Shown: positions 1 to 58,780, numbered from the stretch's first letter. The stretch is DNA of 64,000 nt from Bacteroidota bacterium (GCA_013361065.1 JABWAK010000002.1:2273-66272), one strand, 5' to 3'. The notes: a model not told the origin generated them from the sequence alone. Translations and numbers: made by a program.

Positions 1-5
1 GATTT

Positions 6-230
6 TCAATAACTATATATACACATTTCTACAACATGTCGAAGTGTAAAAAATTGTCCCTTCTTTTTCTTCGCTTCAGTAGGCAAAAGATATTCAAATG
101 CATCATCCATGATTCTCAAATTTGAGCCAAATAAGCGAACTCCTTCAATTGGGCCAACACAAACTTGTAGATGATCTTGACCTGCCCCCATATGATATGC
201 CAGTGCTTCGTTTAGATTTTCTGCCTCAGG
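6..230 (-). pseudogene. Internal fragment of an N6-adenine DNA methyltransferase (type I HsdM-like / N6_Mtase family), truncated
   Basis: Minus-strand translation ends ...IMDDAFEYLLPTEAKKKKGQFFTLRHVVEM, matching the HsdM motifs (GDAYEYLL...GEFYTPR.VV.LMV) and then stops after about 15 more residues; AT-rich; N-terminal part replaced by IS3 remnant. Confidence 0.55.
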
Positions 231-531
231 CACCTGCCTGCCGGTCCCGAAGGGACACCTTTGGTGCAGGCAGGTTGGCAAGCCGAAGCTTATAAAATGA
301 TTCTGGTGCCGGTGGTCTGTAGCCTGATGTACTGTGTATCCTCTCCGTGTTGTACAACCTCCTCCATCTCTCGGTACCAACCCTCTCTTCGGTCAATGTA
401 TCAAAGATCTCTCCATTGAGCAACTCATCTCTTACTTTTCCATTGAACGATTCAATGTATCCGTTCTCCCAAGGACTTCCCGGTTCTATGAACAGTGTTC
501 CGACATCCAACCGGTGAAGCCATTCTCTCAA
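226..531 (-). mobile_element. IS3-family transposase (OrfB, rve integrase core) C-terminal ~100 aa remnant; no intact upstream orfA/orfB
   Basis: ORF translation ...EPGSPWENGYIESFNGKVRDELLNGEIFDTLTEERVGTERWRRLYNTERIHSTSGYRPPAPESF is the typical C-terminus of IS3 transposases; the upstream frames carry no transposase-like sequence. Confidence 0.7.
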
Positions 532-1122
532 AATATCTGCAACAAACTCCGGTCCGTTTTCCGATCACGCAGCCGTTAACGAGTAGTGCGGTAAAAGACA
601 GCGATACGACGACGATCGTTCGAACGAGCACGACACTCCTGTTTCTCATCGATTCACGGACCTACCCTTTCCCGCCGGCATGCGGTTCGCAATTATTTTT
701 GCAGAATGAGTTTTCTTGCTGCCGTAAAAGCTCCGCCCGCAGAACTTCCCTGCGGCACGTCGATTCTAGACGATACTGTTCCGGATAAGACCCGGAAGCA
801 CGATGGAAGACCTATCCATGTTATAGAACATTTGATTCCCCAGTAATACCGTATTCACGTAAGGAAGCAGCAGAGGAACACACAGCCGGATGACGCACCG
901 CGGGATGGCATACCGGACGAACCGCCGGAGGCAACAGGTCCCCGGTCCGGCAACGCCCATTCCATTGCATTTCTGCATGATTTGTGCTACTTTGAGGGGA
1001 TATTGATTTTTTCCCATTGCCGCTGTTCAGGGATCTTTGCGGTTGGAATGCAGCAGGGTGCCGCCACACACCGATAAATTACGTGGACACGATCCCGGAC
1101 AACGGCCCAAAGTACACGTGCC

Positions 1123-2521: not shown

Positions 2522-3649
2522 ATGAAAATCCTCCTGTTCGGTCCGGCATACCCTCTCCGCGGCGGCATGGCGCACTTCATCGCGCTGCTGTACACGGAGC
2601 TGACGCGCCGCGGCCATCAGGTGAAGATCATCAACTTCACGCGACAGTATCCCAGGATCCTCTTCCCCGGCAAGACGCAGGAGGAGAGCGGCGAAGCCGG
2701 CATCCCGGTGCCGAGCACCGCGCTCATCGACTCCATCAATCCGTTCAACTGGCTCTATCACGGATACCGGCTGCGCCGCGAGAAGGCGGACCTCGTCATC
2801 TCCACGTTCTGGCTGCCGTTCCTCGCCCCCAGTTCCGGCACGCTGCATATGATGCTCCGCAGCAAGCGGACGAAGACACTCACCATCCTGCATAACCTGA
2901 TCCCGCACGAGAAGCGTCCGGGCGACATGCTCTTCACCCGCTGGCTGACGATGTTCACGGACTATTTCATCGCCCAGTCCGCCTCAGTGGAGAAGGACCT
3001 GCAGCAGTTCGTCCCGGGGGCCACATACCGGCGCGTGGCGCTGCCGATGTTCTCGCTGTTCAAAAACCGCATCCCGAAAGAGGAGGCGAAACGCGCGCTG
3101 AACATCACGGATGAACGCGTGATCCTCTTCTTCGGCTACATCCGTCCCTACAAAGGACTCCACGTACTTATCGATGCAATGAAGATCCTCAAGCAGCGGA
3201 TGAAGGTGCGGCTGCTCGTGTGCGGTGAGTTCTACGGGGACGAGGAGAAGTACCGGGCGCATATGACGGAGGCCGGCATCGACGACTGCACGACAGTGAT
3301 CTCGGACTACATCCCCAACGAGAAAGTCCACACATACTTCTCTGCTGCTGATGTGGTGGTGCAGCCGTACATCTCCGCCACACAGAGTGCCATCGCCCAG
3401 ATCGCGTACTTCTTCTCCTCCCCCATCATCGCCACGAATGTCGGTGCGCTGCCGGAGGTGGTGATCGACGGGCGCTCCGGACTGATCGTCCCGCCGAACG
3501 ACCCGCAGGCGATCGCCGATGCGGTCGTCCGCTTCTACGACGAGCGGCTGGAAGCGCCCCTGGCGGCGGGTGCCGCGGAGGAACGGAAGAAATATTCGTG
3601 GGAAGCAATGGCGGAAGCAATAGAAGAGCTCACACGAAATTCAAAATGA
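2522..3649 (+). CDS. GT4-family glycosyltransferase (Glycos_transf_1)
   Basis: C-terminal EX7E-type region ...FFGYIRPYKGLHVLIDA...VQPYISATQSAIAQIAYFFSSPIIATNVGALPEVV...GLIVPPNDP. Confidence 0.85.
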   Translation: MKILLFGPAYPLRGGMAHFIALLYTELTRRGHQVKIINFTRQYPRILFPGKTQEESGEAGIPVPSTALIDSINPFNWLYHGYRLRREKADLVISTFWLPFLAPSSGTLHMMLRSKRTKTLTILHNLIPHEKRPGDMLFTRWLTMFTDYFIAQSASVEKDLQQFVPGATYRRVALPMFSLFKNRIPKEEAKRALNITDERVILFFGYIRPYKGLHVLIDAMKILKQRMKVRLLVCGEFYGDEEKYRAHMTEAGIDDCTTVISDYIPNEKVHTYFSAADVVVQPYISATQSAIAQIAYFFSSPIIATNVGALPEVVIDGRSGLIVPPNDPQAIADAVVRFYDERLEAPLAAGAAEERKKYSWEAMAEAIEELTRNSK

Positions 3650-3748
3650 ATAATTGATAATGGATAATGGGGAACATTACCATATCAATTGTTCGTATTG
3701 GATCCACCATTCTTAATTATCAATTCATTCATTATCAATTGTTTTTGT

Positions 3749-4558
3749 ATGCAATACGATCCCATCAAGAATGTCATCGGTGATGTCGCCAAGAAGGCGC
3801 TCTTCCTCCGCAAGTTCTTCTACTGGCTGCTCGGGGTGCTCTTCCTCCGCACCTGGTATGTGAAACGTGCGCTCAACGAACTGCTCGCCGGGAAACAGGG
3901 AACGTTCCAGCTGTTCGATGCCGGGAGCGGGTTCGGTCAATACTCGTACTACATCGCCAAGCATTTCCCCGGCGCGCGTATCCACGCCATCGACGTCAAA
4001 GAGGACTACATCGCGGACTGTTCGCAGTTCTTCCCTGCCGCCGGCATCACCGCGGTGCACTTCGGCGTGGAGGACCTGACCATGCCGACGCATACGGACC
4101 GGTTCGACTTCATCCTGAGTGTGGATGTGATGGAGCATATCGCGGAGGATGAACTGGTGTTCCGTAACTTCCATGCGGCAATGAAGAAGGGCGGGCGGCT
4201 GCTCATCCACACCCCGTCCAACCTCGGCGGGTCGGACGTGCATCAGGAGGGGGACAAGAGTTTCGTGGAGGAACATGCGCGGGACGGCTATTCCGTGGAG
4301 GATATCACGGCGAAACTGCAGCGGGCCGGGTTCACGGTGCTCTATACGCGCTATTCGTACGGACCGGCCGGCACCCTGGCGTGGCGGCTGGTGGTGAAGT
4401 ATCCGCTGCTGATGGTGAATGCCAGCAAAGCGTTCTTCGTGGTGCTGCCGTTCTATTATCTGGCGACACTCTGGTTCAGTCTGACGCTGATGTGGATCGA
4501 CTTCCACTCCGCCAACAGCACCGGCACCGGACTGCTGGTGGCGGCGGAGAAGCGGTAA
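3749..4558 (+). CDS. Class I SAM-dependent methyltransferase, membrane-anchored
   Basis: LFDAGSGFGQYSYYIAKHFPGARIHAIDV (motif I) ...KKGGRLLIHTP; hydrophobic N- and C-termini; ORF 3689 start lies in AT-rich spacer, internal Met at 3749 preferred. Confidence 0.75.
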   Translation: MQYDPIKNVIGDVAKKALFLRKFFYWLLGVLFLRTWYVKRALNELLAGKQGTFQLFDAGSGFGQYSYYIAKHFPGARIHAIDVKEDYIADCSQFFPAAGITAVHFGVEDLTMPTHTDRFDFILSVDVMEHIAEDELVFRNFHAAMKKGGRLLIHTPSNLGGSDVHQEGDKSFVEEHARDGYSVEDITAKLQRAGFTVLYTRYSYGPAGTLAWRLVVKYPLLMVNASKAFFVVLPFYYLATLWFSLTLMWIDFHSANSTGTGLLVAAEKR

Positions 4559-7149: not shown

Positions 7150-8409
7150 ATGCGATCCGTCAGTCTCTTGTTCATCCTCATCAGCGTCCTGTCCGCACAG
7201 AACCCGTTCGAGGCGTACTACCTTTCCAAACAGCGTCTGCAGGAGAAGGATACCGCCGGCTACTTCTATCTGGCGGAGCAGGCGTACACGCTTGCGCCGT
7301 TCAACCTGGAGTTCACCGTCAATTATGCCCGCGCCTGCGTCACCGTGAACCGGCACATCCGCGCCACGAACCTGCTGCAGGCGGTGGCGGATATGGGATT
7401 CGATTACGACTTGGAGAACGATACCACCTTCCGTCCCCTCTGGAACCAGTCCAAATTCAAACAGCTCAACGCCAAAGCGGAACAATCGTCCAAACTCACG
7501 GCGAGCAACTACGCCTTCTCCGTGAAGGAGAAGGATCTCGTGCCGGAGGGGATCACCTACGATCCCCGTCAGCAGAAGTTCTACATCAGCAGCGTCTACA
7601 AACGGAAGGTGGTCGGCATCAATCTGGACGGGACGACGTTCGACCTGTTGGGCGAAGCGCAGGACGGTCTCTACAGCACGCTGGGGATGAAGGTGGATGC
7701 AGCACGGAACCATCTCTGGATCGCCGGTGTGCTGAACACACCGAAGGCGCGGACGATGGGAGCGGGAGATATGGGCAAGTCCGCCGTGTTCCAGTACGAC
7801 CTGGAGACCAAGCGGCTGCTGAAGAAGTACGTGCCGGACGATACGCTCACCCACCTGTTCAACGACATCGCCACGGTGAACGGATCGGTCTATGTGACGG
7901 ACAGCGAGAACGGCGCCGTGTACCGCATCGATAAAGAGACGCAGACGATGACCCCGTTCTTCCGGTGGGACGGCATGTTCTATCCCAACGGCATCACGTA
8001 CACGCCGGACCGAAAGTATCTCTTCGTGGCGCACTGGGCCGGCATCAGCCGCATCTCACTGGCCGACACGCAGATGGTGATGCTGCAGCACAAGCCGACC
8101 ACCACGCTCACCGGGGTGGACGGTCTCCTCTTCCATGAGAACGCGCTCATCGCCGTACAGAACGGCGCCGGACCGCAATCGCGGATCGTCCGCTTCGAAC
8201 TGAACAAGACGATGGATGCGGTTGCAAAAGCCACGGTGCTCGAGTCGCAGAACCCGCTCTACAATATCCCCACCACCGGCACCATCGTGGATGATGAGTT
8301 CTTCTTCATCGCCAACAGTCAGCTGCAGAACTTCGATGCGCAGGGGAACATCTTCCCCGCGGAACGGATGCAGCCGACCTACATCCTGAAACTGAAACTG
8401 AAGGAATGA
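7150..8409 (+). CDS. Secreted hypothetical protein, predicted six-bladed beta-propeller (SMP-30/gluconolactonase/strictosidine-synthase-like)
   Basis: Signal peptide MRSVSLLFILISVLSAQ; repeated VY..D...G..YR / LF...NGI motifs; family assignment tentative. Confidence 0.4.
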   Translation: MRSVSLLFILISVLSAQNPFEAYYLSKQRLQEKDTAGYFYLAEQAYTLAPFNLEFTVNYARACVTVNRHIRATNLLQAVADMGFDYDLENDTTFRPLWNQSKFKQLNAKAEQSSKLTASNYAFSVKEKDLVPEGITYDPRQQKFYISSVYKRKVVGINLDGTTFDLLGEAQDGLYSTLGMKVDAARNHLWIAGVLNTPKARTMGAGDMGKSAVFQYDLETKRLLKKYVPDDTLTHLFNDIATVNGSVYVTDSENGAVYRIDKETQTMTPFFRWDGMFYPNGITYTPDRKYLFVAHWAGISRISLADTQMVMLQHKPTTTLTGVDGLLFHENALIAVQNGAGPQSRIVRFELNKTMDAVAKATVLESQNPLYNIPTTGTIVDDEFFFIANSQLQNFDAQGNIFPAERMQPTYILKLKLKE

Positions 8410-16797: not shown

Positions 16798-17715
16798 ATG
16801 ACCTTAACAGATAAAATAAAATACAAGACAACATTTAAGCAGGCGCTTGATAACCTTGCCAACACACTTGTGAGTCACGTTTCGACAAGTGAAGGTGATT
16901 GGTCTATTAAGGGTTTTATTGATGTATACAAAAATATATATACGATTTCCTCTGACACTAAAATCATCTCAAAAATATTGGAGATTCATCTTTTCCCTCA
17001 AATAATTGAATTCGCTAAGAGCATCGATTATAAAATTGTCCTCGCTGAAAAGCAAAACTGGTATCCAGATCTAACATTTATCAACAATCATGATAACACG
17101 GTAAAATTTGCGGTAGATATTAAAACAACTTTCAGGCGGAAGAACAAAATAGCCGGATTTACACTCGGAAGTCATGGAGCTTATTTCAAAGAACGCGATA
17201 AAGACAAAAACATTCAGTTTCCATATAACCAGTATTCTGGTCATTTTTGTTTAGCGGTAATTTACACAAGAACTGACATTCATGGAGATATTCCTGAAGC
17301 GGATATTCTTCAAGTTCATGATTTACAAGAATCTTACGAACCTAATAGAAATACTGTAGGGACAAGGAAAATAACAAACGTAAAAAATTTAAAATCCATT
17401 ACATCTGTGATAAAAGATTTTGATATTTTTGCGGCGGAAAAATGGAAAATCGCTAGCGACAAACAAGGGTCGGGAAATACCGCAAATATTGGCTCAATAA
17501 TAGAAATCAACGATTTAAAGAATGAAAATGGCATTTTTAGCAAATTAGGTGAAGAGTGGTTTGATGAGTATTGGATAAATCACGGTTCTGCTAGAATGAT
17601 AAAGAAAGGAAAGTCAGTAAAAATTACTAATCTTAGAGATTATTTAATTTTTAAAGGAAAAGAAGACCTTTGGGAAAAAGTGGTTGGTAAAAAAAAGAAA
17701 GAAAAAGATAAATGA
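16798..17715 (+). CDS. Type II restriction endonuclease, EcoRV family (predicted GATATC)
   Basis: NWYPDLTF...FAVDIKTTF (PD-(D/E)xK) ...FPYNQYSGHFCLAVIYTR...EKWKIASDKQGSGNTANIGSI...ENGIFSKLGEEWFDEYW parallels R.EcoRV (NHYPDFTL...IAIDIKTTY...DKWVIAGDLAGSGNTTNIGSI), from recall; AT-rich. Confidence 0.8.
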   Translation: MTLTDKIKYKTTFKQALDNLANTLVSHVSTSEGDWSIKGFIDVYKNIYTISSDTKIISKILEIHLFPQIIEFAKSIDYKIVLAEKQNWYPDLTFINNHDNTVKFAVDIKTTFRRKNKIAGFTLGSHGAYFKERDKDKNIQFPYNQYSGHFCLAVIYTRTDIHGDIPEADILQVHDLQESYEPNRNTVGTRKITNVKNLKSITSVIKDFDIFAAEKWKIASDKQGSGNTANIGSIIEINDLKNENGIFSKLGEEWFDEYWINHGSARMIKKGKSVKITNLRDYLIFKGKEDLWEKVVGKKKKEKDK

Positions 17716-18638
17716 AAGTTGTGGTGCCCCCTATAAAAAGCCAAGGTATTAAAACCAAATTAGTGCCGTGGATCAAAGAAATTGCTCCAAAGGTGACCGG
17801 GCGATGGATAGAACCATTCCTTGGCACTGGTGTGGTAGCATTCAACTCTGGATATAAATCAGCTATTCTTAATGATACCAACCCACATATTATTAATTTT
17901 TACAAAGGTGTGCAGGCCGGGGTTATTACGGCGCCTCTAATGAAAAAATATTTAGAGCGTGAGGGCGAATTATTGAGTAGGGCTGATAATAATGGATATG
18001 AACATTATCTATCGGTGAGGAAGAGATTTAATTCTGGAGAGTACTCTCCTTATGATTTCATTTTTCTTTCCCGTGCTGGTTTTAATGGAATGATGCGATT
18101 TGGTAGTAAGGGAAATTGGAATATTCCGTTTTGTAAAAAGCCTGATCGGTTCGCCCAAGCTTATATAACCAAAATTACCAACCAGTTGTCTTCTGTCGCT
18201 CAAATAATTCAACCCGAACCACTTTGGAGTTTTCACAATAAAAATTTCACAGAAATCATTCCATTGGCTAAAGAACAAGATATAATTTATTGTGACCCTC
18301 CCTATTTTGGGAGACATGTCGACTATTATAACGGTTGGTCAGAGAAAGACGAAGAAACATTGTATTCACTTTTACATGAAACCAAGGCCAAATTTATTCT
18401 TTCTACATGGCATCATAATGAGTGGCGAGAAAATGATATGATAGCTAGATATTGGAATAAGTTTAATATTATTACAAAGGATCATTTTTATCACAATGGT
18501 GGAAGTATTGAGAATCGCAGAACCGTTGTGGAGGCTTTGGTGTGTAATTTTGACGTGAATAAATTTGAGACACATAATCATGGAGTTCAAAGCAAAGTAA
18601 AAGTTGAACAACTTGCTATATTTACAGAGTCTGTATAG
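17712..18638 (+). CDS. Dam-family N6-adenine DNA methyltransferase, M.EcoRV-like
   Basis: MKVVVPPIKSQGIKTKLVPWIKEIAP...EPFLGTGVVAFN (motif I) ...IYCDPPYFG (motif IV DPPY) ...STWHHNEWREN; near-collinear with M.EcoRV; 4-nt overlap with R gene. Confidence 0.85.
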   Translation: MKVVVPPIKSQGIKTKLVPWIKEIAPKVTGRWIEPFLGTGVVAFNSGYKSAILNDTNPHIINFYKGVQAGVITAPLMKKYLEREGELLSRADNNGYEHYLSVRKRFNSGEYSPYDFIFLSRAGFNGMMRFGSKGNWNIPFCKKPDRFAQAYITKITNQLSSVAQIIQPEPLWSFHNKNFTEIIPLAKEQDIIYCDPPYFGRHVDYYNGWSEKDEETLYSLLHETKAKFILSTWHHNEWRENDMIARYWNKFNIITKDHFYHNGGSIENRRTVVEALVCNFDVNKFETHNHGVQSKVKVEQLAIFTESV

Positions 18639-27522: not shown

Positions 27523-27790
27523 CCGGGATGAATCCCGGGGTTTTGGGTTACTGTGTTCCGTTGGTGTGTTCGTGCCTTGGTGGTTCTGTAATTTTGTTCT
27601 GCGTTATTCTGCGGAATCTGCGGGACAGCTCTTTGCATTTCTTGCGCATCGACCTTGGTGAATTATTCTTGCCGGGTGGTTTCTCGATTCCCCGGGATGA
27701 ATCCCGGGGCTTTGGGTTACTGTGTTCCGTTGGTGTGTTCGTGCCTTGGTGGTTCTGTAATTTTGTTCTGCGTTATTCTGCGGAATCTGC
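27523..27790. repeat. Two direct copies of a 104-bp repeat (1 mismatch) at 160-bp period; member of a modular intergenic repeat family (locus A)
   Basis: 27523-27626 and 27683-27786 CCGGGATGAATCCCGGGG(T/C)TTTGGGTTACTGTGTTCCGTTGGTGTGTTCGTGCCTTGGTGGTTCTGTAATTTTGTTCTGCGTTATTCTGCGGAATCTGCGGGA. Confidence 0.9.
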
Positions 27791-27852
27791 GGGATCGACC
27801 TGCTCTGCTTTTGTCATTTCCATTTCACCTCCGGTTTTCGTAGCTTTGTTCC

Positions 27853-32694: not shown

Positions 32695-32907
32695 AACGGC
32701 CTAACAAGCGGCTCATGACTGACCCCGCAACCGCATTCCTGCCTGTCGGCAGGCATGCGCTCTGAAACTCAAGTGTTGAGTCGTCAGCATACAACTTAGG
32801 ATACGAAAGCTCATTTTATATACATGAGCACTGACCTCTGACCCTGAATGGTTACGGGATAGCTTATCCGCCATCCGATACATGATTGCTATTCTTAATA
32901 ATCCCCT

Positions 32908-33471
32908 ATGAAATATCAATCAACGCTAATCCTGCTGTTTATAGTGCTCCTTTCGCTTTTACATAATGGTTGTTATTCTCCTCAAACGAAGAGATCGGTA
33001 TTTATTTATAAAGGAATGGACTACACTGCATTTTGTGCAGATTCAGTCCGTGTATATTTATCAAATTGGTTTGATTCTACAATTCTTCATTCGGGGACCG
33101 ATAGTTGTAACGGATATTCAGGTGTTTCCTTCACTGATCCTGAACTTACTAATTTGTTAACCAGCGGTGAATTAACAGGAGAGATGTTTTGTAAAGCTAT
33201 TGAGAAACAAACGGGTGAGTACCCACGGCCTCAATTTGATTCATATTTAGGTGATTCCTATCATGATTCGCTAAACTCAGATTTAAATTGGCATGGTGGA
33301 TTGATTGTCGTGGTTCAATGGTTGAATAGATGTACCATTAACGGAGATCGACAAACCACGTTGTGTGTATCAATGAATAGGTTTGAGGTTGGAGGAGATT
33401 GTATGCTATTTTCTTTCACTATTAAGGATGATAAAATTAGAGACTTCAAGTATAAAGGATATATTCTTTAA
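32908..33471 (+). CDS. Hypothetical lipoprotein; AT-rich island
   Basis: Lipobox LLHNGC; no recognisable domain. Confidence 0.45.
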   Translation: MKYQSTLILLFIVLLSLLHNGCYSPQTKRSVFIYKGMDYTAFCADSVRVYLSNWFDSTILHSGTDSCNGYSGVSFTDPELTNLLTSGELTGEMFCKAIEKQTGEYPRPQFDSYLGDSYHDSLNSDLNWHGGLIVVVQWLNRCTINGDRQTTLCVSMNRFEVGGDCMLFSFTIKDDKIRDFKYKGYIL

Positions 33472-33701
33472 TTATTCTATTCTTTGCAATCGCTCTGCCA
33501 TATTAACAATGAACCCCGCATAGAAGCATTGCGGAACAGACAGTTGCAACTGTGGCCTCGAAAAAGTCCCAAGTGTCATGAAATCTAAACTCAACATACG
33601 ATTCGTCAGTATTCAGCATATTAAAAATAAAGCGCGTGGTCGCAGTAAAACGTCTTCACGTAGTTTAGTCGCCATCCGTTAGGCGGTTTCCGAGTATATC
33701 A

Positions 33702-34529
33702 ATGATAGACGAAAGAGTGATTAATATATATACTGACGGTTCGTCAAGGTCAACTCCTCGGCGCGGCGGTGTTGGAATAAGGTATATTTATGTAAACGAA
33801 AGTGGTGCGGAAATTTCGACCGATCTTAATTTACCTGGTTACCCTAATGCCACCAGTCAAGAAATGGAGTTACAAGCTTGCGTATTGGCATTGAATCATT
33901 TAGACGACTATCCTGACTTAGCAAGATTCACAAAAGTAGTGATTTACAGCGACTCCAAATACGTTGTTGACAATTTCCACAATGCTCTGTTTCGTTGGTC
34001 AAAGAATGGATGGACTCGAAAAGAAGGAGCTCCCGTGTTGAATGCCACTATTTGGAAGGAGCTATTAAAAGCTATTCGCAAATGCCGACGTAGGGTAGAA
34101 TTCACTAAAGTAAAGGGTCACTCGACAGACCCTCACAATAAAGCAGTGGACAAACTCGCTAAGATATCCTCTTCAATACCATTTAATCAGGCACTTTCAC
34201 CAACAATTGTTCGACGCAAGATGTCTGATCGAAAAACTAAAATTGGCAGTGTGCTTGCAATCGGCCAAAGAATTACAATTCGAATTGTCCAAAGTCAATA
34301 CTTGCGAGAACAAAAGTTGTATCGATATCGATATGAAGTGATGTCTAAATCTAGTCCATTCTACAAGAATGTGGATTTTGCTGTCACTGAACATATCTTG
34401 CGAGAAGCGCATACATATTCTGTTCGAATAAATTCTGAACAAGCTAATCCAAGGATTGTCAAAGTATTCAGAGAGACGATCCCAAACGCGGTTAACAAGG
34501 CAAAGAGAAATGATAATAAAACTGCTTAA
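33702..34529 (+). CDS. RNase HI domain fused to an uncharacterised ~125-aa C-terminal domain; AT-rich island
   Basis: INIYTDGSS...SQEMELQA...VVIYSDSKYVV...VKGHSTDPHNKAVDKLAK gives all five RNase HI catalytic positions (D,E,D,H,D); C-terminal 125 aa unassigned. Confidence 0.7.
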   Translation: MIDERVINIYTDGSSRSTPRRGGVGIRYIYVNESGAEISTDLNLPGYPNATSQEMELQACVLALNHLDDYPDLARFTKVVIYSDSKYVVDNFHNALFRWSKNGWTRKEGAPVLNATIWKELLKAIRKCRRRVEFTKVKGHSTDPHNKAVDKLAKISSSIPFNQALSPTIVRRKMSDRKTKIGSVLAIGQRITIRIVQSQYLREQKLYRYRYEVMSKSSPFYKNVDFAVTEHILREAHTYSVRINSEQANPRIVKVFRETIPNAVNKAKRNDNKTA

Positions 34530-34844
34530 CCATATCATAATAGAACCCCGAATAGAACCATTGCGGGGCAAACCCCGCCCAACAACGGCAGGACGGGCTC
34601 GTCAAAAAAAATTAATCCCCGTTCGCATCATGCAGCACAATGATGCGTTCAATATCCCTTGAAGCTGCACAATTTCCATCCTGCCGCCCGGCCAACGTTT
34701 GTCCTCATGACGGTATCTGACTGCGGCGGCGATCCCCGGGGCGGCCGGTACCGCCGTACAGCGGAAATCGCGAAAATTCCGTATATTATGGTAGTTTCTT
34801 TCCGTCCGGTACCGGACAGTATCGTCCAATAACTTAGGGTTCCC

Positions 34845-42627: not shown

Positions 42628-42990
42628 GTGAGCGTCACCAGTGACAATTGAGTTTTACGGGACGGGATACCATCCCGTCCTACAACTGGGTCGAAGCACC
42701 GCTTCGAACTACAATTTCTTCTGTGGCTCTGTGTTTTTGTGGTAACGTATATATTTGATTGCCGGCGTAAACGCCGTCCTACCGGACTTGGGTCGCAGTT
42801 TGATGCCAAGTCTCCTCCTCTTCTCTGTGCTCTCCGTGTCCTCTGTGGTGAAGTTTTCTGGACGGGATAACATCCCGTCCTACCTCTGGGTCGAAGCGGC
42901 GCATCGACGCGCATTTCTTCTTTGCGTGCTTTGCGTTCCTTGCGGTGAAGATTTTGTATGCTCGGCAACATTGCGTATCTTTCTCCTGAA
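42628..42990. repeat. Two tandem ~150-bp hairpin-rich repeat units, locus C of the modular family
   Basis: Two copies of GGACGGGATA(C/A)CATCCCGTCCTAC..CTGGGTCGAAGC.. plus GCCGGCGTAAACGCC hairpin and TCTGTG..TCTGTGGTGA module. Confidence 0.85.
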
Positions 42991-43028: not shown

Positions 43029-43661
43029 ATGAAAGTCGAGATCTGGTCGGACGTGATGTGTCCGTTCTGTTACATCGGGAAACGTCATTTTGAAGCAGCA
43101 TTGCAGGAGTTCCCCGGCAGGGGTTCCGTCACGGTGGAATGGAAGAGTTTCCAGCTGAATCCCGGCATGGTCACCGATCCCTCCCGGAATATCAATCAAT
43201 ACCTGGCAGAGATCAAAGGGATCTCTCTGGAGCAGGCGCAGGCAATGAATGCGCGGGTGACCGAGATGGCGAAGGATGCGGGACTGACGTACGATTTCGA
43301 CAAAGCGATCGTCGCCAATTCGTTCGATGCGCACCGTCTCTCCCACTTCGCGAAGCGGTTCGGTACACAGGATGAGGTGGAAGAACGTCTCTTCCGCGCT
43401 TACTTCACCGAGGGGAAGAATACCGCGGACCACGACACTCTCGTGCAGCTGGCTGCGGACGCCGGACTCGATGCTGACGCAGTGCGGACGATGCTCGCCG
43501 GGAAGGACTTTGCCGAAGATGTGGAGCGGGACATCTATGAGGCGCAGCAGGTCGGTGCGCGCGGGGTGCCGTTCTTCGTGTTCGATGAGAAATACGCCGT
43601 CTCCGGCGCCCAGCCGGTGCGGTTATTCGTCCAGGTGCTGAACAAAGTGGCAGAGGGATGA
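43029..43661 (+). CDS. DsbA-family thiol:disulfide oxidoreductase (FrnE-like)
   Basis: MKVEIWSDVMCPFCYIGK (CPFC active site). Confidence 0.85.
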   Translation: MKVEIWSDVMCPFCYIGKRHFEAALQEFPGRGSVTVEWKSFQLNPGMVTDPSRNINQYLAEIKGISLEQAQAMNARVTEMAKDAGLTYDFDKAIVANSFDAHRLSHFAKRFGTQDEVEERLFRAYFTEGKNTADHDTLVQLAADAGLDADAVRTMLAGKDFAEDVERDIYEAQQVGARGVPFFVFDEKYAVSGAQPVRLFVQVLNKVAEG

Positions 43662-43755
43662 TCGGCAGCATCATCCAACGACCGAAACTGCCGGTTGATT
43701 CTTTTCCTTTTTCGTTCCATCTTTCCCCGTTTGCATGAACTTGACCGGAGGACCA

Positions 43756-45720: not shown

Positions 45721-45815
45721 ACCTGCCGGTCCATGCTGGACAGGCGTTGTGCGATTCTCTATATTGAGTCGTTCTTACAGATCAACCACTCTTCACTCCC
45801 AACGGGCACAGACAT

Positions 45816-46193
45816 ATGAAACGCAGCCTCCTTCCCATCCTTGCCGCAGCAGCATGGATCGGTATCTCGGAATTCGTCCGCAACCAGTTCCTGCTCCGAT
45901 CGTATTGGACGGACCATTACAGCAGAATGGGACTCACCTTCCCCGCCGATCCGGTCAACGGAGCTGTGTGGGGGATCTGGTCGCTGCTGTTCGCCGGTGT
46001 TATCTTCGTCCTGCGCTCGCGGTTCGATCTGCGCGAGACATTCGTCCTCTCCTGGTTCATCGGTTTCGTGATGATGTGGGTGGTGATCGGCAATCTCGGC
46101 GTGCTTCCGTTCGGCATTCTGCCGTATGCACTGCCGTTGAGCATGGTGGAAGCGTTCGGGGCGGTGTGGATCGTTGGGAAACTCAAAGAATGA
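45816..46193 (+). CDS. Small hypothetical membrane protein
   Basis: Signal/TM segments. Confidence 0.4.
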   Translation: MKRSLLPILAAAAWIGISEFVRNQFLLRSYWTDHYSRMGLTFPADPVNGAVWGIWSLLFAGVIFVLRSRFDLRETFVLSWFIGFVMMWVVIGNLGVLPFGILPYALPLSMVEAFGAVWIVGKLKE

Positions 46194-46620
46194 TAATTAT
46201 CAAGATTGAAAGATTATCAAGATTACAAGATTCAAAAAAACGGAAACACATAGAAACAGAGGAAGCATAGAAGAACAGTAAAGCAATTGAAAGATTATCA
46301 AGATTACAAGATTATCAAGATGGCAAGATTCAAATAGCGGAAACACATCGGAACATAGGAAACATAGAAGAGCGGAAATGCGATTGAAAGATTATCAAAA
46401 TTGCAAGATTCAAAAACGGAAACACATAGGAACATAGGAAACATAGAAGAACGGTAAAGCAATTGAAAGATTATCAAGATTACAAGATTCAAAAAACGGA
46501 AACACATAGAAACATAGGAAACATAGAAGAGCGGAAAAGCAATTGAAAGATTATCAAGATTACAAGATTCAAAAAACGGAAACACATAGAAACATAGGAA
46601 ACATAGAAGAGCGGAAAAGC
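46194..46620. repeat. AT-rich tandem repeat: 5 copies of a ~80-bp unit directly upstream of the MDR dehydrogenase gene
   Basis: Unit GCAATTGAAAGATTATCAAGATTACAAGATTCAAAAAACGGAAACACATAGAAACATAGGAAACATAGAAGAGCGGAAAA; copies 4 and 5 identical; internal CAAGATT and GAAACATA sub-repeats. Confidence 0.95.
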
Positions 46621-46648
46621 GAAAACATTGAATGAAGGATGGACCACG

Positions 46649-47623
46649 ATGAAAGAGATGATGAAAGCGGCGCTCTATTATGAATACGGCGGGCCGGAGG
46701 TGGTGAAGATCGGTACCGCACCGAAACCGATGCCGAAAGAGGATGAGGTGCTCATCCGCGTCCACGCAAGCACGGTCAACAGGACCGACTGCGGATTCCG
46801 TTCGGCGGAGTATACGATCGTCCGTCTCTTCGGCGGACTGTTCCGTCCCAAACTCAACATCCTCGGCTGTGATTTCGCCGGAGAGATCGCTGCGGTCGGG
46901 AGCGCGGTGAGCAGCTATGCACCGGGCGACCGAGTGGTGGGATTCGAGGAGTGGAAATTCGGCGCACATGCGGAGTACATCATCCAGAAAGCGAACCAGC
47001 CGTTCACGCGCATTCCGGACGGGATGACGTACGAACAGGCAGCGCCGATCCTGGAGGGGGCGCACTATGCGCTGAACAATCTCCGCGCTGCCGGCATCGC
47101 TCCCGGACAGCGCTGGCTCATCAACGGCGGCACCGGTGCGATCGGTTCCGCCGCGGTCCAGCTGGCAAAGTATTTCGGCGCGCATGTAACGGCGGTCTGC
47201 GCCGGCAGCCACAGGGAGCTGGTCCGTTCCCTCGGTGCCGATGATGTGATCGATTATCAGAGCGAGGATTTCACCCGACGGCCGCAGCGGTTCGATGTGG
47301 TGTTCGATGCCGTCGGTGCGCGGACCTTCGGCGAATGCAAACCGGTCCTGACCCCGAAAGGGATCTACATGTCCACCGAACTCGGTCCCGGTTCACAGAA
47401 CCCGTTCCTCGCCCTGATCACCCCCTTCACCGGCGGCAGGAAGGTCCTTTTCCCCATCCCCACCCTCACAGTGGAGGATGTGGAGTTCATTGTCCGCCTT
47501 GTGACCGAAGGGAAATTCCGTCCGCTTGTCGACAGGACCTATCCTTTGGACCGGATCGTGGAAGCCTATGCGTATGTGGAAACGAGGATGAAGATCGGGA
47601 ATGTGGTGCTGACGATCCCGTAG
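46649..47623 (+). CDS. Zinc-type/MDR-superfamily NAD(P)-dependent oxidoreductase (quinone oxidoreductase-like)
   Basis: ...GGTGAIGSAAVQLAKYFGAHVTAV... Rossmann GxGxxG; AAGGA SD-like before ATG 46649. Confidence 0.8.
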   Translation: MKEMMKAALYYEYGGPEVVKIGTAPKPMPKEDEVLIRVHASTVNRTDCGFRSAEYTIVRLFGGLFRPKLNILGCDFAGEIAAVGSAVSSYAPGDRVVGFEEWKFGAHAEYIIQKANQPFTRIPDGMTYEQAAPILEGAHYALNNLRAAGIAPGQRWLINGGTGAIGSAAVQLAKYFGAHVTAVCAGSHRELVRSLGADDVIDYQSEDFTRRPQRFDVVFDAVGARTFGECKPVLTPKGIYMSTELGPGSQNPFLALITPFTGGRKVLFPIPTLTVEDVEFIVRLVTEGKFRPLVDRTYPLDRIVEAYAYVETRMKIGNVVLTIP

Positions 47624-55443: not shown

Positions 55444-55485
55444 AAATGTGTAGTGAAAGATGTCGTGCGAGAAGAACAATACAGC

Positions 55486-55660
55486 CATTCCAATATTATC
55501 AGAATTATCAAGATTGCATGATTGAGTCGTGGAGTAAAGTTGGGGGAAAAGCGATTGGAAGTTTATCAGAATTAGCTGAAGAATAAAGTGAAAACACAAA
55601 GAAATATGTCTGATTACTGATTACTGATAGCTGATCACTGACAGCTGAAAGCTTTTTCCG
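55486..55660. repeat. Degenerate single copy of the 46194-46620 repeat unit followed by a CTGA(T/C)(T/A)A simple repeat, in a convergent-gene spacer
   Basis: ATTATCAAGATTGCATGATTGAG...GCGATTGGAAGTTTATCAGAATTA...GAAAACACAAAGAAATA versus the unit GCGATTGAAAGATTATCAAAATTGCAAGATTC...GGAAACACATAG; then CTGATTACTGATTACTGATAGCTGATCACTGACAGCTGA. Confidence 0.6.
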
Positions 55661-55679
55661 CGCCTATCTGTTTTGCTGT

Positions 55680-58299: not shown

Positions 58300-58780
58300 G
58301 TCATGTGATGTTGTAACAATATGCCGGCGTAAACGCCGGCTTACCCAACCTGTAGCCGGGATGGTTCATCCCGGTCAAATAAAAACTTGCGAAGTTTGTT
58401 CTGCATACCTCGTTCAACCTTTCGCAAGGTTTTCTTCGGGCGGTGTTGTTATTCCTTCTGCGTTATTCAGCGGATTCAGCGGGATATTCTTTCGTTCTTT
58501 GCTTCGCCGGAAAAGGACCGACTCTGGAGAGTCGGTCAACGTACATTCAGCCATCCCCGATCGGCTTTCGATGTTGTAACAATGTGCCGGCGTGAACGCC
58601 GGTCTGCCGAATACTGATCGTTGCTGGTGTTTCCATTTCTTTCTGCGTTGTTCTGCGGATTCAGCGGGATATTCTTTCGTTATTTGCTTCACTGAAACAG
58701 GACCGACTCTGGAGAGTCGGTCAACATATGTTCACCCATCCCTTATCGGCTTTCGATGTTGTAACAATGTGCCGATCGTG
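58300..58780. repeat. Tandem ~185-bp hairpin-rich repeat (2 full copies + partial), locus D of the modular family, filling the 565-bp spacer upstream of the MATE gene
   Basis: Repeated TTCTGCGTT.TTC.GCGGATTCAGCGGGATATTCTTTCGTT...GGACCGACTCTGGAGAGTCGGTC...TCGGCTTTCGATGTTGTAACAATGTGCCGGCGTGAACGCCGG; plus CCGGGATGGTTCATCCCGG and GCCGGCGTAAACGCCGGC hairpins. Confidence 0.9.

Follow-up and report, generated by a model that had tools for sequence, protein, structure and literature searches.

An AT-rich tandem array upstream of an MDR dehydrogenase gene in a Bacteroidota genome and its relation to a dispersed family of short-word intergenic repeats

The locus and the anatomy of the array

A tandem array of AT-rich DNA lies directly upstream of an MDR dehydrogenase gene in an uncultured Bacteroidota bacterium (GCA_013361065.1, JABWAK010000002.1:2273-66272). 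The window, the whole stretch of 64,000 nucleotides (nt) that was analyzed, carries this array in a spacer of 455 bp and 33% GC at 46194-46648 on the + strand. The gene upstream of the spacer (45816-46193, +) encodes a hydrophobic (membrane) protein of 125 amino acids (aa) that lacks a Pfam family; the first words of the array set in at the TGATAA with which this gene closes. The gene downstream (46649-47623, +; 975 nt) encodes an MDR, or zinc-type alcohol dehydrogenase-family, protein with the Pfam domains ADH_N and ADH_zinc_N. The NCBI protein of the source metagenome-assembled genome (MAG), 100% identical to it, begins four codons later than ATG 46649. An AAGGA Shine-Dalgarno-like site at 46635-46639 (+), 10 nt before this ATG, is kept as AAGGATGATG in the sister species described below. 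In the Pfam scan of the window, the neighbors of the array are the AraC, AHSA1, membrane protein and MDR genes.

The array itself (46206-46622) consists of five head-to-tail units of 81, 97, 79, 80 and 80 nt, anchored on TTGAAAGATTATCAA. Its onset is the TGATAA double stop of the 125-aa gene, and its end is 26 nt 5' of ATG 46649. Tandem Repeats Finder reports a period of 80 with 3.9 copies, 93% matches and a score of 528 at 46308-46620, together with a row of period 97 from 46196. Additional rows of period 8, 9 and 17 correspond to runs of 8-9 nt inside every unit. The GC content of the array is 32%, as opposed to 57.5% for the window, and 51% of its + strand is A. An earlier note on this DNA had described such an array, and its existence, its AT-richness and its occupation of the whole spacer are all borne out. 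Some of the values needed correction: the note's figure of 65% GC for the genome disagrees with the window, and the spacer is 455 bp rather than 430 bp long.

Each unit has two parts. AAGATTnn words of 8-9 nt in a row make up the A module, three AAGATT words in the basic plan, while the B module opens with CGGAAAC and continues in ACATAGrA words of 8-9 nt, with three copies of (A)ACATAG. Unit 4 (46463-46542, +; 80 nt) has AAGATT at unit positions 5, 14 and 22, ACATAG at positions 42, 50 and 59, and GGA at positions 36, 55 and 71. Unit 1 (46206-46286, +; 81 nt) is the most diverged, being identical to units 3-5 at 73-75 of 81 positions. Unit 2 (46287-46383, +; 97 nt) carries a 17-nt insertion made up of two A words (9+8), and unit 3 (46384-46462, +; 79 nt) contains, from 46417 on, CGGAAACACATAGGAACATAGGAAACATAGAAGAA, a string of 35 nt that recurs unchanged in the sister species. 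Unit 5 (46543-46622, +; 80 nt) matches unit 4 at 79 of 80 positions; the two are not identical, as had been claimed, but by this measure they are the newest duplication, and the proposal of a recent expansion stands. The tandem array is real and far beyond chance, with 10 matches to the A word pattern where 0.8 are expected and 5 matches to the B pattern where 0.0 are expected.

The array is non-coding because its unit lengths are not those of a triplet repeat, each + strand frame has 6-11 stops, and the one long minus-strand open reading frame (ORF) runs antisense through the MDR gene. A protein-coding repeat was rejected on these grounds, the unit periods (79/80/81/97) not being multiples of three as a set. 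The minus-strand ORF (46304-47212, 302 aa) is spurious, as the earlier note had held.

Copy number and age of the element in relatives

The next relatives encode an MDR protein 85-86% identical to that of the window, and their loci are syntenic with it. The shared gene order is DSBA, 200-aa, AHSA1, AraC/DUF6597, 125-aa, MDR, DUF1573 and aldo-keto reductase. These relatives are represented by five independent contigs from JGI, the NCBI GS21 MAG and Logan; contig L054 is from Bacteroidota MAG GS21 (GCA_030824295.1). Among themselves, the contigs show 97-98% nucleotide identity in the MDR gene and 0.90-0.93 identity at 4-fold degenerate sites. The window differs from them far more, with 82% nucleotide identity and an identity at 4-fold sites of ~0.60 in the MDR and 125-aa genes and 0.50 in AraC. 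Going by these identities, the contigs form one species, which we call the sister species, and the window another.

The two-part A-B element is present in the orthologous spacer of all sister-species contigs, with 2-2.5 units as opposed to five in the window. Spacer length varies accordingly: 156 bp in one further contig, 196 bp in L001, 224 bp in L054-L056, 236 bp in L053 and 455 bp in the window. The sister-species spacers differ from one another by two 8-nt indels (CAAGATTG, ATGATTGT), one 21-nt indel and one 5-nt indel. The length polymorphism that the earlier note had proposed as a test is thus present among relatives, and it includes word-sized changes between strains that are 97-98% identical. 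In L053 the upstream gene is a different one, and the element still lies 5' of the MDR gene. Contig L057 starts inside the element, a break typical of assemblies failing on a repeat. MDR orthologues of 72-77% identity keep the gene, and the array is absent; one of them has a single GAAAGCGGAATCACAT upstream, which may be the seed of module B. On this distribution, the element is older than the split of the two species, and the lineage of the window expanded it to five units.

The gene neighborhood itself has also changed. In the sister species (L001 1050-3773), a gene for a 907-aa M1 peptidase with a type IX secretion system (T9SS) tail lies between the DSBA and 200-aa genes and is missing at window 43661-43735. 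Contig L053 is without the AHSA1, AraC and 125-aa genes. This gain or loss of the peptidase gene, together with the gene losses in L053, shows that the neighborhood has been rearranged between close relatives.

Constraint on the sequence of the words

The two species share long exact strings in only some parts of the locus. The longest string common to the window and the sister species is 38 nt in the 975-nt MDR gene and 35 nt in the array spacer (CGGAAACACATAGGAACATAGGAAACATAGAAGAA). Ordinary spacers retain much less: 12 nt between AraC and the 125-aa gene, 9 nt between the MDR gene and the next gene, and 8 nt between AHSA1 and AraC. The AraC-to-125-aa spacer cannot be aligned above shuffled sequences except at ATTCTCTATATT, and the AHSA1/AraC divergent spacer has a conserved block with a word-like string, GATTGCA. 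Because the 35-nt match is exact despite ~60% identity at 4-fold sites, and because ordinary spacers share only 8-12 nt, the element has to be regarded as both old and constrained. By these comparisons, it is hypervariable in copy number and constrained in the sequence of its words.

A second site in the window

The spacer at 55444-55679 separates two convergent genes, one for a beta-lactamase-fold protein that has a T9SS tail, the other for a luciferase-like monooxygenase. The earlier note had placed a whole diverged unit here. The building blocks are indeed dispersed to this site; judged by its alignment, however, the site is not a copy of the 80-nt unit. The family member found here, at 55469-55524 (+), is ~55 nt long, has a GAGAAGAACAATACAGCC leader followed by A words, and matches the junction between the end of B and the start of A in the array (nhmmer E 3e-4). 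The full-unit profile matches the site only weakly (E 0.013 at 55555-55607 and E 0.17 at 55503-55524).

The first part of this spacer, at 55444-55530 (+), immediately follows the stop codon of the beta-lactamase/T9SS-tail gene. It is ~92% identical (79/86 columns) to L001 15150-15235, has no significant RNA fold (z -0.27), and looks like a conserved element. Beyond the 86-nt block the word runs of the two species differ, L001 having five copies of GAGTCGTG and a second A run. The spacer ends in CTGAnnn heptamers in both species. In the window there are six in perfect register at 55610-55653 (+): CTGATTA, CTGATTA, CTGATAG, CTGATCA, CTGACAG and CTGAAAG.

A dispersed family of words

A degenerate 20-mer, ATTATCARRATTRCAAGATT, finds 29 loci in species-representative genomes. 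Nine of these matches are on eight contigs of the GS21 MAG, all of them intergenic and within tandem runs of 7-9-nt words. The runs mix several words, namely AAGATTAT(C), AGATTAGC, AATCTTGC, CTGATAG and GAGTCGYTGAG. Two matches in Ignavibacteriae IGN16 adjoin ~20-30 copies of GGTTGAAT-type words, and word-run contexts are also present in Ignavibacteriae HGW-1, Saprospiraceae, Chitinophagaceae, Bacteroidota MAG283 and a Poribacteria MAG. The remaining matches are single, without comparable word runs, and serve as a control. Alignment of the instances gives a common core of a purine-rich GAAGAAC-type leader followed by ATTATCAAGATT(G/A)CAAGATT. MAGs that belong to different orders and range from 30 to 58% GC have these words in common. 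Contig L008 of GS21 has a higher-order repeat of its own, with composite units spaced 239 nt apart.

None of the 13 A-pattern matches in viral contigs lies in a comparable word run; they are single, by eye coding (e.g. LSELQD-like), and the viral contigs contain no B-pattern match. A stricter 24-nt pattern has no match in the genome contigs. In the literature, we found no description of these particular words.

Module B (GGAAACACATAGRAACATAG) is also dispersed. It is present in GS21 contig L012, where its reverse complement precedes it. Bacteroidota-like metagenome contigs of low GC carry it too, in many cases as two inverted copies with 100-150 nt between them. The module B matches in L038, L040, L042, L045 and L047 belong to an unrelated repeat, by eye possibly a eukaryotic one, and were set aside. 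Inverted pairs of word runs 60-150 nt apart are found in L018, L019, L024, L030, L006 and L041.

The family follows no rule of orientation. The A run is sense to the flanking genes in the window, L012, L029, L013 and L019, and in several of the sense-oriented cases the words start right at the upstream stop codon. It is antisense in L008, L031 and L011, lies between convergent genes at window 55.5 kb/L001 and in L018, and lies between divergent genes in L004.

Other word runs were noted alongside the family. In L011 (Ignavibacteriae IGN16, a 34% GC genome), a composite element occurs twice, 4 kb apart, at 3130-3640 and 7190-7530. It contains GGTTGNAA words, the hairpin CCTACCGGAGGTAGG, AAGATT words, GGTTGAAT words (~6 in one copy as opposed to 20-30 in the other) and GATTATTC words. 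Window 42920-42944 has 2.8 copies of CTTTGCGTG, and CTTTGCGT words are found there as well as after module B in L034, L039, L050 and L052 of low-GC metagenomes. The CTTTGCGT words are thus shared across distant genomes. In the spacer between a GT4 glycosyltransferase gene and a methyltransferase gene (window ~3640-3760), TGATAATGGATAATGG is followed ~50 nt on by CCATTCTTAATTATCAATTCATTCATTATCAATTG, forming an inverted word pair. This pair resembles the hairpin-type family members and, by eye, also Fur-box hexamers.

Transcription, RNA structure and mobility

The array does not appear to form a structured RNA. No Rfam family matches the array region at the gathering threshold (best E 1.1 in a scan at E<=10), and a tRNA/tmRNA scan found none. 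On either strand the array RNA folds less stably than dinucleotide shuffles (z +1.4, +1.5). It is therefore modeled as unstructured sequence, and is not a structured RNA or a riboswitch by this prediction. The 455-nt spacer contains 17 GGA motifs.

A promoter within the array is not evident either. The + strand of the array and of the 455-bp spacer has no TAnnTTTG, the Bacteroidota-type -7 box, which is present 5-45 nt upstream of several other genes of the window. The TATGTTTC near-boxes in the array are on the minus strand, face away from the MDR gene and are without the final G. Sigma-70 and terminator scans of the spacer gave background levels, with one weak sigma-70-like match (9/12). The sole good promoter-like match, TGGACA-17-TATATT at 45737-45765 (+), is upstream of the 125-aa gene. 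The ATTCTCTATATT string at this site is common to the sister species, which reads TATATTTG, a canonical Bacteroidota-type -7 box. These features suggest that the 125-aa gene has its own promoter at 45737-45765. Since the scan found no terminator behind the 125-aa gene, read-through of the array into the MDR gene is probable, and the array itself is more likely part of the transcript than a promoter. A related observation comes from L072, with a 77%-identical MDR orthologue, where TTTCTATATTGTTCAGTCG lies upstream of the MDR gene (250-300). In the window, TTCTCTATATTGAGTCG at 45755-45775 lies upstream of the 125-aa gene. The two sites may be one and the same promoter, with the 125-aa gene and the array now standing between it and the MDR gene.

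Signs of mobility were sought in and around the array. No inverted repeats flank it, only chance inverted matches of 10-18 nt being found around 45900-46900, and a transposable element of the miniature inverted-repeat type (MITE) was rejected on the lack of terminal inverted repeats. With respect to presence and absence, the element is in both 82%-identical species, and the 72-77% orthologues have no array and also differ in their neighboring genes. The neighboring proteins scanned against Pfam include no replication, partition or transposase family, and a blastn search of the spacer against plasmid and phage collections gave no match. The alternative that the earlier note had named, a satellite of an insertion sequence, is ruled out by the lack of flanking inverted repeats and of plasmid, phage or viral matches.

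Several known kinds of repeats were considered and rejected. Plasmid-type iterons or a replication origin do not fit, as no rep gene adjoins the array, there is no strand-skew switch at the array, and TTATCAAGA matches a DnaA box at only 7/9 positions. A CRISPR array does not fit because the units abut without unique spacers, and a repetitive extragenic palindrome (REP)/RAYT-type element does not fit because the array has no palindrome. Resemblances seen by eye to a DnaA box, an integration host factor site, Fur hexamers, parS half-sites, omega-type heptads, sigma-54 sites, H-DNA and target-site-duplication footprints were dropped as unsupported.

Origin and possible function of the array

The explanation we favor, and to which we give about an even chance, is that the array is a local amplification of a lineage-wide, modular, short-word intergenic repeat family whose words are read by a putative trans factor. 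It starts from what is observed, that is, the anatomy, age, polymorphism, sequence constraint, dispersal and lack of RNA structure of the element. By the time the two species split, an ancestral two-part A-B element would already have lain upstream of the MDR gene. At the level of words, slipped-strand mispairing would add or remove single words, as suggested by the 8-nt indels between strains, the steps of 9 and 17 nt, and the 17-nt insertion in unit 2. At the level of units, slippage or unequal recombination between 80-nt units would have taken the array from 2-2.5 to five units, with units 4 and 5 as the newest. The words would stay constant if, as double-stranded DNA, they are recognized by a putative sequence-specific factor, which could be a protein that binds them or the machinery responsible for the spread of the repeat. 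At this locus, transcription from the promoter of the 125-aa gene would make the array a purine-rich intercistronic leader without structure. If MDR expression is affected at all, it would then be through the number of bound sites or the length of the spacer, and not through a promoter in the array.

A factor that reads double-stranded words fits best because free copy number, conserved words and indifference to strand and context need a joint explanation. A single-stranded RNA motif is disfavored by the indifference to strand, and a dedicated regulator of the MDR gene by the spread of the words over unrelated loci without regard to gene context. Conservation counts against pure neutrality.

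Several points weigh against this explanation. The copy number of five comes from a short-read MAG assembly and could reflect mis-assembly. Repeated, low-complexity DNA inflates alignment similarity somewhat. The family loci were retrieved by pattern and hence give no unbiased genome-wide frequency; the 64-kb window, which is an unbiased sample, has only 3-4 such sites, of which a single array is large and the other two or three are small runs of words. Lastly, some copies are visibly decaying, as in L001 of the sister species with GGAAGTAGATAAGAATATAGAAGAG as its second unit, so that not every copy is constrained.

Some of these points would be expected of a neutral or selfish minisatellite, that is, functionless, slippage-prone, AT-rich DNA whose words are alike through common descent combined with concerted evolution or occasional spread. 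Near-identical strains differ freely in their numbers of copies and words, the family keeps to no fixed position or orientation, and units are decaying in the sister species. The array also lacks a structure, a promoter and a match to a known family. However, neutrality does not readily account for a 35-nt exact match and an 86-nt block of 92% identity at a divergence that leaves ~60% of 4-fold sites identical and only 8-12 nt exact in ordinary spacers. Nor does it account for the same words in MAGs of 30-58% GC that belong to different orders, and concerted evolution inside one genome cannot hold two species identical. We consider a neutral origin unlikely, though it deserves real weight.

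The array could instead act specifically at this locus, as a set of iteron-like operators for a protein such as the adjacent AraC/DUF6597 regulator or as a promoter-spacing device, with copy number tuning MDR transcription. The earlier note had favored such a device. The element stays 5' of the MDR gene even with a different upstream gene (L053), its copy number is polymorphic, and the conserved block of the AHSA1/AraC divergent spacer contains the GATTGCA string. The proposal finds no support in the lack of a + strand TAnnTTTG in 455 bp, where one weak 9/12 sigma-70-like match is the only candidate. Many loci unrelated to this one also have the words, in both orientations; among these loci are convergent spacers, where there is no promoter that could be regulated, and the 72-77% orthologues keep the gene without the array. 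A locus-specific role is thus improbable.

An element acting at the level of RNA is slightly more doubtful again. The unstructured, A/G-rich leader would attract an S1-, Csp- or CsrA-like RNA-binding protein or titrate it away, or would govern the differential stability or the translation of the MDR cistron. The predicted lack of structure in the sense RNA, the 17 GGA motifs in 455 nt and the word runs that begin at an upstream stop codon in several sense cases are consistent with this, and MacGregor has proposed a post-transcriptional role for TAACTGA repeats. On the other hand, members are antisense to both neighbors in L008, L031 and L011, and others form inverted pairs. No terminator or promoter of its own defines a small RNA, and Rfam gives no match.

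The remnant of a mobile element, either a MITE or foldback-type element with internal tandem repeats like BrickBuilt or a set of target-site-duplication footprints, is very improbable: some members are inverted word-run pairs 60-150 nt apart and BrickBuilt is itself a Bacteroidetes MITE with a 23-nt minisatellite, but the array has no terminal inverted repeats, no adjacent transposase and no similar DNA in plasmid, phage and viral collections, and its identical position in two species means that it has been immobile since they split.

Relation to known repeat systems

The array appears closest to short-word intergenic direct repeats, such as the heptamers of the cyanobacterial short tandemly repeated repetitive (STRR) sequences and the TAACTGA repeats. 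TAACTGA direct repeats are present in Beggiatoaceae, Cyanobacteria and five Bacteroidetes, with mixed heptamers in one spacer (MacGregor 2015, PMC4679880). The same study described indels in 7-nt steps between Cyanothece strains, predicted RNA without structure, variable orientation in Microcystis, contigs ending inside repeats, and no established function. The present family shares the intergenic position, the tandem words of 7-9 nt, the mixing of several types in one spacer and the dispersal. It also shares word-sized indels between strains, unstructured predicted RNA, variable orientation and contigs that break inside the repeat. The CTGAnnn heptamers at 55610-55653 and in L001, L008 and L013 are literally of that class. 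In contrast, the words of the array are imperfect 8-9-nt words (AAGATTnn, ACATAGrA) rather than exact heptamers, and they are nested in a two-part 80-nt unit that is itself tandemly amplified. The host is also different, belonging to an uncultured Bacteroidota lineage of ~58% GC outside the set of PMC4679880.

Other systems resemble the array in part. BrickBuilt of Porphyromonas gingivalis is a MITE with a 23-nt unit, leader and tail subunits with inverted-repeat ends, and promoter activity (PMC4596501). Like the array, it is an intergenic, spacerless tandem repeat of a Bacteroidetes host with multiple genomic copies of variable length, and it has been proposed to influence transcription. Unlike BrickBuilt, the array has no terminal inverted repeats, its unit is an 80-nt assembly of 8-9-nt words, and no promoter was found in it.

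BOX elements of Streptococcus pneumoniae (boxA-boxB(n)-boxC) and enterobacterial bacterial interspersed mosaic elements (BIMEs) are dispersed, modular intergenic mosaics in which one module varies in tandem copies. Their modules are 35-60 nt long and capable of forming hairpins; BIMEs are bound by host proteins, and modest effects on neighboring genes are possible. The array shares their modular, dispersed and copy-variable nature, but it is unstructured on both strands and has no sequence similarity to them.

Contingency loci switch surface or restriction genes on and off by means of perfect 1-9-nt units that lie between promoter elements or in the untranslated region (UTR) or the ORF. Plasmid iterons and the omega heptads of ribbon-helix-helix proteins are contiguous short subsites, direct or inverted, and a cooperative DNA-binding protein binds them with an affinity that depends on how many there are, which is the kind of mechanism proposed here for the array. 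The heptanucleotide repeats of Haemophilus are an example of simple-sequence contingency loci in promoters and 5'-UTRs (PMC12721329). A slippage-prone repeat upstream of a gene and a strain-variable copy number are common to these loci and the array, whereas the 80-nt unit, the housekeeping-type oxidoreductase and the presence of the family in convergent spacers set the array apart. The resemblance to iterons and omega heptads is one of layout only, as no rep or par gene is nearby and the array is chromosomal and dispersed.

Other features of the window

The window contains additional features that lie apart from the array. At 16798-18638, an EcoRV-family restriction endonuclease gene is followed by a gene for a D12-class N6-adenine DNA methyltransferase in a 35% GC island of the ~58% GC window; the pair is probably a restriction-modification system gained by horizontal transfer. 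Another island of low GC (40%) at 32769-34655 holds a 187-aa ORF without a Pfam family and a 275-aa protein with an RNase H domain. The first part of the window (1-1000) has a GC content of 48%, with patches of 34-42%, lower than the remainder.

GC-rich hairpins with GTAG and a palindrome on one strand (GGGACGGGATACCATCCCGTCCTAC, GTAGCCGGGATGGTTCATCCCGG), and also GCCGGCGTAAACGCCGGC, lie at 42655-42685, 42855-42885, 58324-58377 and 58586-58604. They look like classical REP-type palindromes and make up a repeat family distinct from the word arrays. A 103-nt direct duplicate of 99% identity (27523-27625 / 27692-27794) lies upstream of an aminotransferase gene. Each copy contains the hairpin CCGGGATGAATCCCGGGG, the -7 box TAATTTTG and pyrimidine-rich 9-nt words, TTCTGCGTTATTCTGCGGAATCTGCGGGA. 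Words of the TTCTGCGTTATTCTGCGGAATCTGCGGGA type are found again at 58459-58490 and 58644-58675, inside a 138-nt duplicate of 90% identity.

Biological meaning

Short-word repeats of the STRR/TAACTGA kind have been known for decades without an assigned function. To these, the present analysis adds an uncultured Bacteroidota lineage of ~55-58% GC, in which AT-rich words contrast sharply with the background, and a higher-order unit of 80 nt. It also adds a comparison of two species and multiple strains, in which the words are conserved far beyond neutral sites while copy number is free. From conserved words and free copy number together, we argue that the words are read by something. On the practical side, short-read assemblies break at arrays of this kind, which could also be used to mark strains. 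Were the neutral explanation true, the array would be a minisatellite of no consequence for the dehydrogenase gene.

A more speculative proposal, to which we assign a low probability, is that the AAGATT, ACATAG and CTGA-type words are a shared recognition code of one or a few candidate sequence-specific nucleic-acid-binding proteins kept across Ignavibacteria-like and other Bacteroidota. The arrays would then be tunable binding platforms with copy number, driven by slippage, as a rheostat, and the five units of the window would be a strongly expanded allele. If this is true, the arrays would act in the local insulation of transcription or in the organization of the chromosome, and the STRR/TAACTGA repeats would gain a function that they have lacked since their discovery.

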